Shown: positions 48,103-54,093 of the stretch, piece after piece
Layout of the letters: the number at the start of each line of letters is the position of its first letter
Numbering within the stretch: position 1 is the first letter of the stretch
NCBI RefSeq assembly: GCF_003018115.1
Contig: NZ_CP027457.1
Source: Escherichia coli
GTDB taxonomy: Bacteria; Pseudomonadota; Gammaproteobacteria; Enterobacterales; Enterobacteriaceae
Strand: one strand, 5' to 3'
Length of the DNA: 64,000 nucleotides
The notes under the pieces: model-generated
The model's database searches: none
The model's input: only the letters and a program-made list of their open reading frames with translations
What the model was told of the DNA's origin: nothing
Position numbers and translations under genes: made by a program

Positions 48103-49116
48103 TTAAAATAGCATTTGAGTCAAATAGCCCATTAAGATAGCCATACCTAAGATAACCGTCAGGAATGCAACTATCATCGGTATTCTGAACATTGATTTAA
48201 GTAATATCACTTCCGTCAGGCTTGCGCCCGCACTACCGATGATTAATGCCATTAATGCTCCCAGACCCATTCCTTTTGTCATCAAAACAGATGCCAGAGG
48301 GATAACTGCCTCTGCCCGGATATACAGCGGAATACCGATAACGGCGCTCAATGGGATGGCGAAGGGATTATCTGTCCCTGCATGAGCGGCAATCCATGCA
48401 GAGGGAATAAAGCCATAAATAAAAGAGCCTATTAATACCCCTAACAAAAGATATGGCAGTACATCTTTAAACTGTTGCAACGCATCTTTGGTGGCTAGTT
48501 TTATGGGATTAATACTTACCACAGCTTTGGTACTGCAACAGTTAACGACGGGTTTCTCAATGGCTTTAGCCACTGGATTACAGCAACTCACTTTTATTGG
48601 CGTATATGTCGTCCCCGGCGAAGTTTTGGCTGGAGTACAACAACTTGTTGATGAGCTTTTACTGGCAATGATATGACGTTCAAACCCCAGAGAATCCAGG
48701 ATAATACTGGCAAGTACGGAGACGCCGGCGGCGATAATCGCGTACAACAAGGTAACTTTCCAGCCAAAGGTCACCCACATTAGTCCGACGATAATGGGAT
48801 TAAGTAACGGAGAAACAAATAAAAAAGTGAGAGTCGGACCGAACCCAGCTTTCGCTGACAACAATCCACGTAACATGGGTATTGTCGAGCAACTACAGAA
48901 CGGGGTAACGGCTCCCAACAGAGCAGCCAGGAGATAGCCTCTCCCTTTTCTGGCCCCCATCATCTGCTGGATTTTATGGTCTGGCACCTTTTGTCTTATC
49001 AGGCTGACACCGGCACTAATCACTATAAACAGCAAAGAAAGCTCGACGGCGAGAAACACAAACATCTCTGCGGCATCTTGCAGCATCGCAAGCCAACTAC
49101 TCATACATAACCTCAT
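48103..49116 (-). CDS. ArsP-like (DUF318-type) membrane permease, putative organoarsenical/metalloid efflux
   Basis: 337-aa polytopic membrane ORF with TPFCSCSTIP motif, recalled as the ArsP signature, and a central loop with three vicinal Cys pairs (SCC, SCC, NCC). Not in K-12 at this position by recall. Confidence 0.75.
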   Translation of the reverse strand: MRLCMSSWLAMLQDAAEMFVFLAVELSLLFIVISAGVSLIRQKVPDHKIQQMMGARKGRGYLLAALLGAVTPFCSCSTIPMLRGLLSAKAGFGPTLTFLFVSPLLNPIIVGLMWVTFGWKVTLLYAIIAAGVSVLASIILDSLGFERHIIASKSSSTSCCTPAKTSPGTTYTPIKVSCCNPVAKAIEKPVVNCCSTKAVVSINPIKLATKDALQQFKDVLPYLLLGVLIGSFIYGFIPSAWIAAHAGTDNPFAIPLSAVIGIPLYIRAEAVIPLASVLMTKGMGLGALMALIIGSAGASLTEVILLKSMFRIPMIVAFLTVILGMAILMGYLTQMLF

Positions 49117-49210
49117 TGAATAAATCTATATTTCCAGAATAATCGAAATGAAATTCAGATCAAGATATTTCTGGTATTATCGAAATATCAACCAGACAGA
49201 GGGGTGTCAT

Positions 49211-49531
49211 ATGCAGTTAGAAGAAGTCGCTAAAGCGCTGAAAGAGCTAGGTCACCCGACCCGTTTGTTCATATTTAAACATCTTGTCAAAGCAGGGGAA
49301 CAAGGGTTGCCGGTCGGTGAGTTGCAAAAGCAGCTTGGGATACCTGGCTCCACACTCAGCCACCATATATCAGCACTGGTATCGGTAGGACTGGTCAAAC
49401 AAAACCGTGAGAGTCGGACGCTGATGTGTGTTTCGCAATACGCAATGCTGGAAGCGATAATTGAATTCTTACGCGAGGAGTGCTGCGTAAATAGCAAAAC
49501 ACTTGGCGAAGGGGCCACGAAGAACAAATAA
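49211..49531 (+). CDS. ArsR/SmtB-family metalloregulator, atypical, with C-terminal Cys-Cys
   Basis: ORF 49148..49531; likely start MQLEEVAKALKELGHPTRL (106 aa) with a GGGG RBS; wHTH of ArsR family; lacks the N-terminal CVC site but has C73 and C91-C92 (EECCVNS). Divergent from the permease. Confidence 0.75.
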   Translation: MQLEEVAKALKELGHPTRLFIFKHLVKAGEQGLPVGELQKQLGIPGSTLSHHISALVSVGLVKQNRESRTLMCVSQYAMLEAIIEFLREECCVNSKTLGEGATKNK

Positions 49532-49551
49532 GGGGGCATATCCCCCTTAAG

Positions 49552-49977
49552 CTATTTCAGGCGCTTACCCGCCTCATCAACCACTTTCTCGCCATCTTCC
49601 TTGGCGAACGCGCCTTTTTGCGCATCTGGCAGAATTTCCAGCACCACTTCTGAAGGGCGGCACAGGCGAGTTCCCAGCGTCGTCACCACAATCGGGCGAT
49701 TAATCAGAATCGGGTGCTGAAGCATAAAGTCGATTAACCGATCGTCAGTAAATTTATCTTCCGCAAGGCCCAGCTCCTCATACGGTTCGACGTTTTTACG
49801 CAGCAGCGCGCGTACGGAAATCCCCATATCGGCAATAAGTTTGACCAGTTCATCGCGCGTTGGCGGAGTTTCCAGATAATGGATAATGGTCGGTTCTGTG
49901 CCGCTGTTGCGGATCATCTCCAGCGTATTACGCGACGTGCCGCAGGCCGGGTTGTGATAAATGGTAATGTTGCTCAT
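49552..49977 (-). CDS. arsC: Arsenate reductase ArsC (glutaredoxin-coupled)
   Basis: 141-aa ORF matching recalled ArsC (MSNITIYHNPACGTSRN). Confidence 0.94.
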   Translation of the reverse strand: MSNITIYHNPACGTSRNTLEMIRNSGTEPTIIHYLETPPTRDELVKLIADMGISVRALLRKNVEPYEELGLAEDKFTDDRLIDFMLQHPILINRPIVVTTLGTRLCRPSEVVLEILPDAQKGAFAKEDGEKVVDEAGKRLK

Positions 49978-49989
49978 ATCAGTATCTCA

Positions 49990-51279
49990 TTACAAAGTGA
50001 AAGAGAGACGTAGCGCCAGCGCAGCCAGCGTCACAAACAGCACAGGCAGGGTCATGATAATCCCTGTACGGAAGTAATATCCCCAGCTGATAGTCATATT
50101 CTTCTGCGAAAGTACGTGCAGCCAGAGCAGTGTCGCCAGGCTACCAATCGGGGTGATTTTCGGCCCCAAATCGCAGCCAATCACGTTGGCATAAATCATC
50201 GCTTCTTTGATAACGCCAGATGCCGTGCTGCCATCAATGGACAACGCGCCAACCAGTACCGTCGGCATATTGTTCATAATAGAAGAGAGGAAGGCGGTGA
50301 GGAATCCGGTGCCGAGCGTCGCGGCCCACAGGCCGTTATCCGCCAGCACGTTGAGTACGCCAGAAAGATATTCCGTTAATCCGGCATTGCGCAGGCCATA
50401 AACCACCAGATACATGCCGAGCGAGAAGATGACAATCTGCCAGGGTGCACCGCGCAGGACTTTACCCGTATTAATCGCATGACCGCGTTTAGCGACGACA
50501 AACAAAATCAGCGCGCCCACAGCTGCAATGGCGCTCACCGGAATGCCGAGCGGTTCCAGGACGAAAAATCCCACCAACAGAAGCAGTAAAACAACCCAGC
50601 CTGTTTTGAACGTAGCAGGATCTTTAATCGCTTCTGCGGGAGATTTCAGCAGCGCCATGTCGTAGTTCTGCGGAATATCTTTGCGGAAATAGAGATGCAG
50701 CATCACCAGCGTGGCAACAATCGCGGCGATATCCACCGGCACCATCACCGAGGCATATTCGCGAAAGCCGAGGCCAAAGAAATCAGTGGAAACGATATTC
50801 ACCAGGTTGGAGACAATAAGCGGCAGGCTGGCGGTGTCGGCAATGAATCCGGCCGCCATCACGAACGCAAGCGTCGTGCCTTTACTGAATCCTAAGGCCA
50901 GCAGCATGGCGATGACAATCGGCGTCAAAATAAGCGCCGCGCCATCATTGGCAAACAGGGCGGCAACGGCGGCACCGAGCAGGACAATCCAGGTAAACAG
51001 CAAGCGACCGCGTCCATTGCCCCAGCGTGAAACGTGCAGCGCCGCCCATTCAAAAAAGCCGGACTCATCCAGCAGCAGGCTGATGATAATGACGGCAATA
51101 AACGCAGCCGTCGCGTTCCAGACGATATTCCACACCACCGGAATATCGCCCGGATGTACTACGCCCGTAACTAACGCCAGTACCGCGCCGAGCGTTGCAC
51201 TCCAGCCGATGCCTAAACCTTTCGGCTGCCAGATAACCAATACAATGGTCAGGACAAAGATAGCGCCTGCCAGTAACAT
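49990..51279 (-). CDS. arsB: Arsenite/antimonite efflux pump ArsB
   Basis: ORF 49990..51300; start likely [11 protein letters not shown] giving 429 aa; polytopic membrane protein. Confidence 0.93.
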
Positions 51280-51333
51280 AATGCCTCCCGGATAAAACAC
51301 ATGTGAAAATCCATATGTGTTTAGCTAAATTTT

Positions 51334-51687
51334 TTAACTGCAAATGTTCTTACTGTCTGCGGAACAGTTTTGTCGGGCCAGGTTGTGGACAATCGCCTGA
51401 ACCTTTTCCTGTTCACATCGCCAGGCTTCATCAATAATTTTCGCCGCCCATGCTGGAATATGCGGCGATAAGCGGTAATGAACCCACTTACCTTGCTTGC
51501 GGTCCAGCAATAGCCCGCTTTCCCGAAGTAACGCCAGGTGGCGGGATATCTTGGGCTGCGACTGATCGAGGGCAGTGCAGAGATCGCAGACGCATAACTC
51601 TCCCAGTTCGCTGAGCAGTAAAACGATGCCCAGACGGGTTTCATCAGCAAGAATTTTGAACAATTGGATGGGTAACAGAAATGACAT
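51334..51687 (-). CDS. arsR: Arsenite-responsive repressor ArsR
   Basis: 117-aa ORF with metalloid-binding ELCVCDLC motif and wHTH. Confidence 0.94.
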   Translation of the reverse strand: MSFLLPIQLFKILADETRLGIVLLLSELGELCVCDLCTALDQSQPKISRHLALLRESGLLLDRKQGKWVHYRLSPHIPAWAAKIIDEAWRCEQEKVQAIVHNLARQNCSADSKNICS

Positions 51688-52311: not shown

Positions 52312-53532
52312 TCAGGCTGTCGCCTGAATCATTTCGGTGGGTTCCTGCTTCAACGGGCGGCCTGACTGCACCATCCCTCCACAGGCAAGAACGGCGTGCC
52401 CCGCCGCTAAAATGTTACGAGCGCCGTTTACATCGGCGTTCGCTGTATATCCACATACCGGGCATCTGAATTGACTTTGTGACAGGCGATTTTCTTTCGC
52501 TGTATGACCACAGCACGCGCAACGCTGGCTTGTGTACGCTGGCGGAACAGCAAGCACCTGACCGCCACGCCAGAGCTGCTTGTACTCAAGCTGGCGGCGC
52601 ATTTCATACCAGCCCTGATCCAGTATCGAACGGTTTAAACCTGATTTTGCCCGGACATTGCGCCCCGGCAGGCTGACCGTACCCGATGCTGACTTTGACA
52701 TGTTGCTGACCTTCAAATCCTCAATGACTATCATTGCGTGGTTTTTGCTGACGGTCGTTGTGACTTTGTGAAGGTAGTCCCTGCGGATATTTGCGATACA
52801 GGAATGCAGTCGCTGTATTTTGCGTTTCTGCTTCTGCCAGTTGTTGCTGAATTTGACCTTGCGGCTTAACTGTCGCTGAAGTCTCGCCAGCTTCTTCTGG
52901 TTTTTCTGAAAACTGTTTACAGGCTCAAAGGCTGTGCCATCTGACAGCGTGGCGAGTTTAGCCACGCCAGCATCCAGCCCGACCATTGATGCTGAAGGGT
53001 GAACCGGAGTTGATACTTCACTTTCTGTCTGAATACTGATGTACCACTTACCGCAGGACTGGCTGACCGTGACATTTTTCACAACACCCGTGACCTGACG
53101 GCTATTCCGGTAGCGCATCCAGCCCAGTTTCGGCAGAAAAATACGGCTGTTTTCCTGATCGAGCTTAACGCCCTGCGGGTAGCGGAATGCATCATTCTGT
53201 CCCCGCTTTTTGAATCGGGGAAAAGCAGCCCGCTTCTGGAAGAAGTTTTTGTAAGCCCGCTCAAGGTCTTTCAGTGACTGTTGCAATGGCTGTGAGGGCG
53301 AATCTTTAAGCCATTGCGTTTCAGTGGCGTTTTTCCACTCAACCAGCCAGGAAGCCATTTTCCCGTAAGGGATGTATTTATTACCGGCCTCATGATTCTC
53401 ATTCTGACGTGCCAGAGCACGATTGAAAACGAAACGACATGCGCCTGCGAAGCGCCTCATTTCACGCTCCTGTTGACCACCGGGTCTTAACTGGAATTTA
53501 AATGCCTGTAGTCGTTTCATGGGCCAAATCAT
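52312..53532 (-). CDS. tnpB: TnpB (OrfB_IS605) RuvC-like RNA-guided endonuclease / accessory transposase protein
   Basis: 406-aa ORF (start may be Met5, [13 protein letters not shown]); RuvC-like acidic residues in [23 protein letters not shown]; zinc-finger CACCGH...CPVCGY. Confidence 0.85.
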
Positions 53533-53542
53533 ACTTTGGCCT

Positions 53543-53958
53543 ATGAAAAAAGAAACCGATATCCGACGCGGAAGGCATTGTGTTTTCCTGATGCATGTTC
53601 ACCTGGTCTTCGTTACTAAATACCGACGTCAGATTTTTGACTATGACGCGACAGAAAAACTACGCACTTACTTTTCAAATGTATGTGCTGATTTTGAAGC
53701 TGAACTGGTTGAAATGGATGGCGAACCAGATCACGTCCATTTGTTAATTAACTATCCTCCCAAACTGGCGATATCCAGTCTGGTAAACAGCCTCAAAGGC
53801 GTATCGGGTAGGTTACTGCGACGAGATCGACCAGATATTGCAGCCAGGTATTACTACAAAGCGTTTTGTGGAGTCCTGGCTATTTTGCCAGTAGCTGCGG
53901 TGGTGCACCAATATCCATCATCCGCCAATACATTGAACAACAGCAAACACCTGGTTAG
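53543..53958 (+). pseudogene. tnpA: IS200/IS605 Y1 (HuH) transposase TnpA, apparently frameshifted
   Basis: N-terminal HuH motif (HVHLVF, KYRRQ) and second HxH (DHVHLLI) in the ORF frame; conserved C-terminus LWSPGYFASSCGGAPISIIRQYIEQQQ is in another frame from about 53866, ending at 53958. The 175-aa track ORF (to 54046) is a frame-fusion artefact. Confidence 0.55.
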
Positions 53959-54015
53959 GTGGAAAACCGCACCTTATATCCCCGCCCTGAATGAACGGGG
54001 TTTTACGGCGCACCG

Positions 54016-54093
54016 GATAAAGCAATCATCGTTCTTGGGGCGTTAATTGCGCTGCTGGAACTGATCCGCTTTCTGCTTCAGCTTCTGAACTGA
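54016..54093 (+). CDS. dinQ: DinQ-like type I toxin peptide ORF (codons 3-27 present; no in-frame start codon)
   Basis: Encodes DKAIIVLGALIALLELIRFLLQLLN*, matching recalled DinQ from residue 3; upstream in-frame codons (TGFYGAP) contain no ATG/GTG/TTG back to a stop at 53992; convergent with gor. Confidence 0.5.
   Translation, partial: DKAIIVLGALIALLELIRFLLQLLN

Follow-up and report, generated by a model that had tools for sequence, protein, structure and literature searches.

The arsRBC operon in this Escherichia coli chromosome is accompanied by a second permease gene and a second ArsR-family regulator gene, and the locus raises the question of what the additional pair senses and exports. 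We analyzed it in a 64,000-nucleotide stretch of contig NZ_CP027457.1 (assembly GCF_003018115.1), hereafter the window. Open reading frames (ORFs) and RefSeq annotation give the gene order chuS, dctR, slp, a yhiS-like gene, the permease/regulator pair, arsC, arsB and arsR; for the pair, the annotation was taken from a locus 99.9% identical to the window. Both the ORFs and the raw sequence confirm that the two genes lie divergently between the yhiS-like gene and arsC, as stated in a preliminary description made from the letters alone; we refer to the regulator as ArsR2. Our data suggest that the pair is probably an arsR-arsP module, encoding a methylarsenite-responsive repressor and an efflux permease for trivalent organoarsenicals that complements arsRBC. 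This system is a close relative of characterized systems in Shewanella and Campylobacter.

The permease gene spans positions 48103-49104 on the minus strand and encodes 333 amino acids (MSSWL...). Its start at 49104 is preceded by a GAGG Shine-Dalgarno sequence and is used by RefSeq (which calls the protein "permease", WP_001614036 type) and by all homologues. The ORF itself runs from 48103 to an in-frame ATG at 49116 and would encode 337 amino acids. The arsR2 gene spans 49211-49531 on the plus strand and encodes an SpArsR-type ArsR/SmtB repressor of 106 amino acids, a form that follows a GAGGGG Shine-Dalgarno sequence and agrees with the RefSeq call. We rejected the 337-aa and 127-aa ORF starts, which are unconserved and are not spaced from a Shine-Dalgarno sequence as the shorter forms are. 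The preliminary description had named an ArsP-like permease and an atypical ArsR, and profile hidden Markov model searches bear this out. The permease matches Pfam PF03773 (ArsP_1) with an E-value of 1.5e-52 over essentially the full model (residues 13-334 on model positions 3-293 of 294). ArsR2 matches the ArsR/SmtB models HTH_20 (2.9e-14) and HTH_5 (1.6e-6) of Pfam and HTH_metalloreg of NCBIfam (61.5 bits, cut-off 55).

Orthology, a conserved operator and genomic context carry the assignment to arsenic, because the cysteine motifs of the permease turned out to be unspecific (see below). By sequence comparison, the E. coli pair is orthologous to the SpArsR/arsP module of Shewanella putrefaciens 200, because the regulators are 58% and the permeases 53% identical and the two modules share a divergent two-gene layout and an operator. 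A 2025 biosensor study defines SpArsR as Sput200_1227 and its target, the arsP promoter, as the 222 bp upstream of Sput200_1226 (PMC12124457). The arsR coding sequence in Text S3 of that paper translates to a 105-aa Shewanella protein with cysteines at positions 83, 101 and 102; we found these cysteines in the Shewanella profunda regulator, and annotations of S. putrefaciens strains include the 105-aa protein itself. The native promoter in Text S3 is 98% identical to the 222-bp intergenic region of our S. putrefaciens W3-18-1 locus (L089), whose permease gave the 53% identity and corresponds to Sput200_1226 in strain 200. In E. coli, the SpArsR/arsP-promoter biosensor responded strongly to 0.1-1 µM methylarsenite (MMAs(III) in that paper), reaching 73% of full signal at 1 µM, versus 9% at 50 µM inorganic arsenite (As(III)) (PMC12124457).

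To place the pair more broadly, we compared it across species. A one-genome-per-species scan returned 80 loci with permeases 48-69% identical to the E. coli protein, and 78 of these, together with four loci fetched earlier, made up the 82 that we analyzed. An orthologue of the regulator adjoins the permease in 58 of the 82, nearly always divergently. In a neighbor-joining tree, the E. coli permease groups with SpArsP; the transporter TC 2.A.119.1.4 and then the Campylobacter jejuni protein CjArsP branch next, outside this clade, and thioredoxin-linked paralogues and the Cu/Zn exporter SO_0444 lie further out.

The cysteines of ArsR2 are consistent with a sensor of methylarsenite (MAs(III)). 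ArsR2 carries Cys73 (codon 49427-49429, plus strand) and the vicinal pair Cys91-Cys92 (49481-49486, plus strand), and the residue numbers given in the preliminary description fit the 106-aa form. The type-1 ArsR proteins of R773 and K-12 are marked by ELCVCDLC, with a Cys32-Cys34-Cys37 site in the DNA-binding helix. We found this CVC site in the neighboring arsR (LCVCDLCTAL), while ArsR2 reads GLPVGELQKQL there. Its top solved relative is AfArsR of Acidithiobacillus ferrooxidans (6J05, E-value 2.5e-10), and the EECC of ArsR2 aligns on the ENCC of AfArsR (Cys95-Cys96), so that the pair ends the C-terminal helix at the matching position. Two recent papers report that AfArsR binds As(III) through a type-2 site made of Cys95, Cys96 and Cys102, and that SpArsR, which keeps only the pair Cys101-Cys102, responds to methylarsenite and not to arsenite. 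ArsR2 Cys91-Cys92 aligns with SpArsR Cys101-Cys102, and ArsR2 has no equivalent of AfArsR Cys102, its tail (CCVNSKTLGEGATKNK) being free of further cysteines. By the published logic, loss of this third ligand would abolish As(III) binding and leave a two-ligand MAs(III) site, which agrees with the likeness to methylarsenite-selective sensors noted in the preliminary description. The pattern C-x17-CC is invariant in all 62 ArsR2 orthologues, including SpArsR, which likewise has no cysteine after the pair.

We next considered the 106-bp intergenic region between the two genes, which contains two operator copies. The motif ATTTC-N10-GAAAT occurs twice in the 64-kb window, both times in this region (chance expectation 0.15): site A at 49130-49149 (ATTTCCAGAATAATCGAAAT) and site B at 49167-49186 (ATTTCTGGTATTATCGAAAT), neither assigned a strand. 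With its flanks, site B forms a perfect 8-bp inverted repeat (GATATTTC-N10-GAAATATC), and the E. coli sequence AGATATTTCTGGTATTATCGAAAT (core 49167-49186) is nearly base-for-base identical to GATATTTCTGGTATTATCGAAT in the S. putrefaciens 200 arsP promoter. The longer Shewanella region (222 bp) contains two copies with at most one mismatch and one degenerate copy. Across 50 orthologous divergent intergenic regions, Shewanella included, 49 contain the motif with at most one mismatch; shuffled controls averaged 1.3 and never exceeded 5. The copies are usually two, spaced 37-50 bp apart. Site A overlaps the -10 element of a weak plus-strand promoter-like site, and site B occupies the spacer of a weak minus-strand one. 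The shared layout, and an operator in common with an arsP promoter that SpArsR controls, suggest that ArsR2 may control the divergent arsP gene.

In the permease, the decapeptide TPFCSCSTIP lies at residues 67-76 (codons 48877-48906, minus strand), and a segment of the central hydrophilic loop (48535-48645, minus strand) holds three vicinal cysteine pairs at residues 155-156 (SCC), 174-175 (SCC) and 189-190 (NCC), as previously described; together with Cys70 and Cys72 these are the only cysteines in the protein, eight in total. Shewanella ArsP also has three loop pairs. The preliminary description had named the decapeptide as an ArsP motif, and an identical one is present in CjArsP (Cj1187c, B5LWZ8, TC 2.A.119.1.1), whose Cys65 and Cys67 correspond to Cys70 and Cys72 and are reportedly required for MAs(III) transport. 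Residues T67-S73 are invariant among 54 homologues. We compared the permease with CjArsP and five other members of the Transporter Classification Database (TCDB), whose sequences came from a supplementary FASTA file. CjArsP shares the Pfam family and full-length homology with the E. coli protein (37% identity, E-value 4e-68), and TC 2.A.119.1.4 and TC 2.A.119.1.5 are each 40% identical to it (4e-71 and 6e-70). According to a review, CjArsP exports MAs(III) and trivalent roxarsone and not As(III). It has a single loop pair (SCC), and its gene is not arranged divergently with an SpArsR-type regulator gene of its own; we take its operon order to be arsP-arsR-arsC-acr3.

A sequence search of the Protein Data Bank with the permease returned nothing useful. 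An AlphaFold2 model built from 54 sequences is confident (predicted local distance difference test score, pLDDT, 87; predicted template modeling score 0.82) and contains two helix repeats with a disordered loop between them, in line with the TCDB description of a 4+4 helix-bundle repeat with a hydrophilic central loop. Two short helices, 52-66 and 71-83, are separated by a break that contains the TPFC motif, and the second repeat has an equivalent break. The figures listed for structural relatives of the model are 13.6 for Pho90, 12.9 for Drosophila INDY, 12.1 for LaINDY, 11.6 for ArsB (10tp) and 10.2 for AbgT. Because these relatives are elevator-type transporters with helical hairpins, the model suggests a substrate site at the hairpin tips, where Cys70 and Cys72 could serve as two thiolate ligands for a methylarsenical. 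The central loop is predicted to be disordered, with pLDDT below about 50 across most of its length (10-residue block means of 47-52 for residues 151-190). It is hypervariable in sequence and in length (44-117 residues in 50 aligned clade members, 38-117 over all 54 sequences) yet rich in cysteine, with a median of 7 cysteines and at least one CC pair in 41 of the 54 homologues. Positive-inside reasoning on a simple model of eight transmembrane helices gave contradictory answers about which side of the membrane the loop faces.

Genomic context provides a further line of evidence. In the window, the canonical arsRBC operon occupies 49552-51687 on the minus strand (arsC 49552-49977, arsB 49990-51279, arsR 51334-51687). 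NCBIfam identifies ArsC (303 bits) and ArsR (PRK10141, 231 bits) in agreement with RefSeq, and this operon is the inorganic-arsenic partner of the arsR2-permease module. The order arsC-arsR2-arsP is found in E. coli and in Citrobacter (with arsRDABC), and Salmonella (also with arsRDABC) has arsC-arsH-arsR2-arsP, where arsH, encoding a protein of the flavin mononucleotide reductase type, separates arsC from arsR2. Other arrangements are arsR2-arsP-arsC-arsB-arsR-arsH in Buttiauxella; arsR, acr3, arsD, arsA, permease, arsR2 in Endozoicomonas; and arsC (of the low-molecular-weight phosphatase type), arsD, arsA, permease, acr3 in Craterilacuibacter. Like the E. coli pair, the pair in the S. putrefaciens group adjoins other ars genes; it lies within a much larger ars/arr island (arsC, a second arsR, a thioredoxin-linked permease, gapdh-arsJ, arsDA, arsB and the arsenate respiratory reductase), while the E. 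coli pair is accompanied by arsRBC only. Several independent gene orders thus tie the permease clade to arsenic. A gut-microbiome paper labels E. coli contigs or operons "ArsRBCRP" and "ArsRDABCRP"; the gene order had thus already been noticed and named in print.

Both genes are under strong purifying selection, which together with the profile matches shows that they are no chance pair of ORFs. When the pair is compared with another allele from E. coli, with the plasmid copy (described below) and with the Salmonella copy, the ratio of nonsynonymous to synonymous substitution rates (dN/dS) is 0.02-0.03 for the regulator and 0.03-0.05 for the membrane part of the permease, and 0.3-0.5 for the permease loop. 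Of 5426 complete E. coli genomes, 2225 contain at least 80% of a 1.8-kb query that covers the pair. K-12 lacks it, as the preliminary description had stated: by blastn, MG1655 has 331 bp in place of the 1733 bp at 47820-49552 (unstranded). These 331 bp hold a 55-bp remnant (L094 3315-3369) that is 85% identical to window positions 49445-49499, the 3' end of arsR2, so the pair was originally present at this site and the K-12 lineage lost it by deletion; it was not gained here. The remnant lies between arsC and yhiS and is accompanied by sequence resembling repetitive extragenic palindromic elements.

Based on these data, we propose that an ArsR2 dimer would bind the two ATTTC-N10-GAAAT operators and repress both divergent genes. 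Methylarsenite, for which two thiolate ligands suffice, would bind the vicinal pair Cys91-Cys92 at the end of the C-terminal helix, and other trivalent organoarsenicals such as reduced roxarsone or phenylarsenite would probably bind likewise. ArsR2 would then be released from DNA and the permease made. The permease would bind the arsenical through Cys70 and Cys72 at the intramembrane helix break and export it; its disordered, cysteine-pair-rich loop probably catches the thiol-reactive substrate and passes it to this site. Together with arsRBC, organic and inorganic trivalent arsenic would be sensed and effluxed separately.

Several observations, gathered here and in the next two paragraphs, weigh against this model. 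We found no experiments on the E. coli genes. The only transport-tested member, CjArsP, is just 37% identical to the E. coli permease. Promoter-like hexamers match at chance frequency in the intergenic region, so the promoter positions given above are tentative.

The main alternative is that the module handles inorganic As(III) or Sb(III), with the permease acting as a second arsenite pump and ArsR2 using a three-coordinate site composed of Cys73 and Cys91-Cys92. The two-ligand methylarsenite model leaves an invariant cysteine unexplained: the residue 18 positions ahead of the pair (E. coli Cys73, SpArsR Cys83) is kept in all 62 orthologues, so that none of the three cysteines varies. In Endozoicomonas and Craterilacuibacter, the permease gene directly follows arsD-arsA, which encode an As(III) chaperone and ATPase; since ArsD and ArsA handle inorganic As(III), these operons hint that some members of the clade carry As(III). 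In addition, 22 ArsR2 orthologues, mostly from Vibrio, gain a cysteine after the pair (mostly CC-x4-C) that resembles the As(III) site of AfArsR (CC-x5-C), and these proteins may also sense arsenite; the ArsR2 orthologues compared come from loci L019-L087 (for example L020, L028, L035 and L047). E. coli ArsR2, however, lacks the extra C-terminal cysteine, and SpArsR, with the identical three cysteines, gives the weak arsenite and strong methylarsenite signals cited above. CjArsP does not extrude arsenite, and in E. coli ArsB is already adjacent. We therefore consider an inorganic role unlikely for the E. coli module.

Somewhat less probable still is that the permease exports a soft metal (Cu, Zn, Cd or Hg) or another thiol-reactive compound in the manner of SO_0444 or SaoE, and merely lies near ars genes. 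No NCBIfam model claims the permease, and its top matches are SO_0444 (NF033936, 106.7 bits) and SaoE (85 bits). The Shewanella oneidensis Cu/Zn exporter SO_0444 (Q8EJL9, TC 2.A.119.1.6) belongs to the same Pfam and TCDB family, and it too has a C-S-C motif and repeated SCC in a long central loop, which contains six CC pairs. We rejected two readings: that a CC-rich loop marks specificity for arsenic, because SO_0444 has its six pairs, and that the TPFCSCS/CSC motif is diagnostic by itself, because CSC is family-wide. The arsenic-type module of the preliminary description is thus supported by orthology and context, but its motifs are not arsenic-specific. Moreover, about 70 of the 82 loci (including those of Aeromonas and S. 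oneidensis MR-1) and all plasmid copies examined have no ars genes nearby, and ars neighbors are likewise absent from hundreds of plasmids, so context ties the module to arsenic only in a minority of genomes. Against a soft-metal exporter, the NCBIfam scores fall far below the cut-offs of 300 bits for SO_0444 (about one third) and 325 bits for SaoE. The permease is 22% identical to SO_0444 (E-value 8e-13), compared with 53% to SpArsP and 37% to CjArsP, and SO_0444 reads LPLCSCGVIP in place of TPFCSCSTIP. SO_0444 is regulated by a MerR/ZntR-like protein, whereas the permease clade is paired with SpArsR orthologues, and its linkage to ars genes arose in several differing gene orders. The soft metal that the preliminary description had offered as an alternative substrate is accordingly the less likely branch.

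A third possibility, which we regard as very improbable, is that ArsR2 is a redox or persulfide sensor of the BigR/YgaV type and that the permease exports a sulfur compound. YgaV and BigR rank second and third among the solved relatives of ArsR2 (E-values of about 2.5e-7), and the NCBIfam BigR/YgaV model (NF040642) gives a weak match, but at 38.2 bits this is well under the cut-off of 155; AfArsR matches best, with the CC pair in register, and the orthology to SpArsR extends to a common operator. Finally, that the pair is a functionless, decaying remnant in E. coli, as its deletion in the K-12 lineage and its absence from 59% of complete genomes might suggest, is scarcely credible and is excluded by the dN/dS values of 0.02-0.05; neither ORF is disrupted, good Shine-Dalgarno sequences precede both, the operators are intact, and the pair is kept in 2225 genomes and has spread on plasmids.

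If the methylarsenite reading is correct, many natural E. coli strains, but not K-12, would have a sensing and export route for methylarsenite apart from that for inorganic arsenite. Of the common arsenicals, methylarsenite is the most toxic; it is produced by arsenic-methylating microbes, and arsenical feed additives give rise to related trivalent organoarsenicals. The finding would then bear on arsenic handling by the gut microbiome and on arsenic research that uses K-12 as an "arsP-free" host. In addition, two genes that now carry the generic names "permease" and "ArsR family regulator" in thousands of genomes could be re-annotated precisely.

The most interesting aspect of the system may be its spread on plasmids. 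A stand-alone arsR2-permease cassette, with a permease about 80% and a regulator 92% identical to the chromosomal proteins, is present at 80% or more of its length in at least 616 plasmid records of PLSDB. Of 647 matching records overall, E. coli and Salmonella account for most; 457 are of conjugative plasmids, and chicken is the source of many. In both plasmids that we inspected (CP101357.1, L007 3685-5150; NZ_CP094513.1, L008 8573-10038), the cassette lies beside IS26, mph(A)-mrx(A), which confer macrolide resistance, and a ProQ/FinO gene; in these two regions, the resistance-gene predictors of PLSDB flag the neighbors and not the arsR2-permease pair. It is quite possible, although we hold this with less assurance than the assignment of the pair itself, that the arsR2-arsP cassette is an unrecognized determinant of resistance to organoarsenicals (methylarsenite and reduced roxarsone), carried on the chromosome in about 40% of complete E. 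coli genomes and, in E. coli, Salmonella and Klebsiella, on conjugative multidrug-resistance plasmids that number in the hundreds and in many cases come from poultry. Arsenical feed additives or methylarsenite of microbial origin could in that case co-select the antibiotic resistance that these plasmids carry along with the cassette.

We noted several other genes in the neighborhood of the homologous permeases. A second, distant ArsP_1 paralogue recurs in ars islands (L003 1-1899; L089 9264-10510; L015 2231-4490), paired with a small thioredoxin-like protein of the MTH895/ArsE type and, in Salmonella, also with an extracytoplasmic function (ECF) sigma factor; the copy from the Salmonella ars island is 29% identical to the E. 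coli permease (E-value 1e-43). A gene for a eukaryotic-type glutathione synthase adjoins the permease in Shewanella, Endozoicomonas and Psychromonas loci (L033 9188-10621; L090/L091 5176-6603; L030 and L052), which hints at a link to thiols. In Vibrio, a SigZ-like ECF sigma factor with a cysteine-rich C-terminus adjoins arsR2 (L020 6933-7505; cluster c3, eight Vibrio loci).

In the window itself, a GC-rich hairpin at 49529-49549 (unstranded; AAGGGGGCATATCCCCCTT) lies between the convergent arsR2 and arsC genes, and its terminator-like match makes it a likely bidirectional terminator. The yhiS-like ORF at 46300-47523 is intact here, encoding 407 amino acids with no NCBIfam match; the gene is split by IS5 in K-12 and annotated as frameshifted in strain EC1515. 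Just past arsR, an IS200/IS605-family element occupies 52312-54046, at a position where the near-identical strain EC1515 and K-12 lack it. It encodes a TnpB of 406 amino acids (guided_TnpB, 390 bits) and a TnpA whose match ends at residue 111 of 175 and which is possibly frameshifted.

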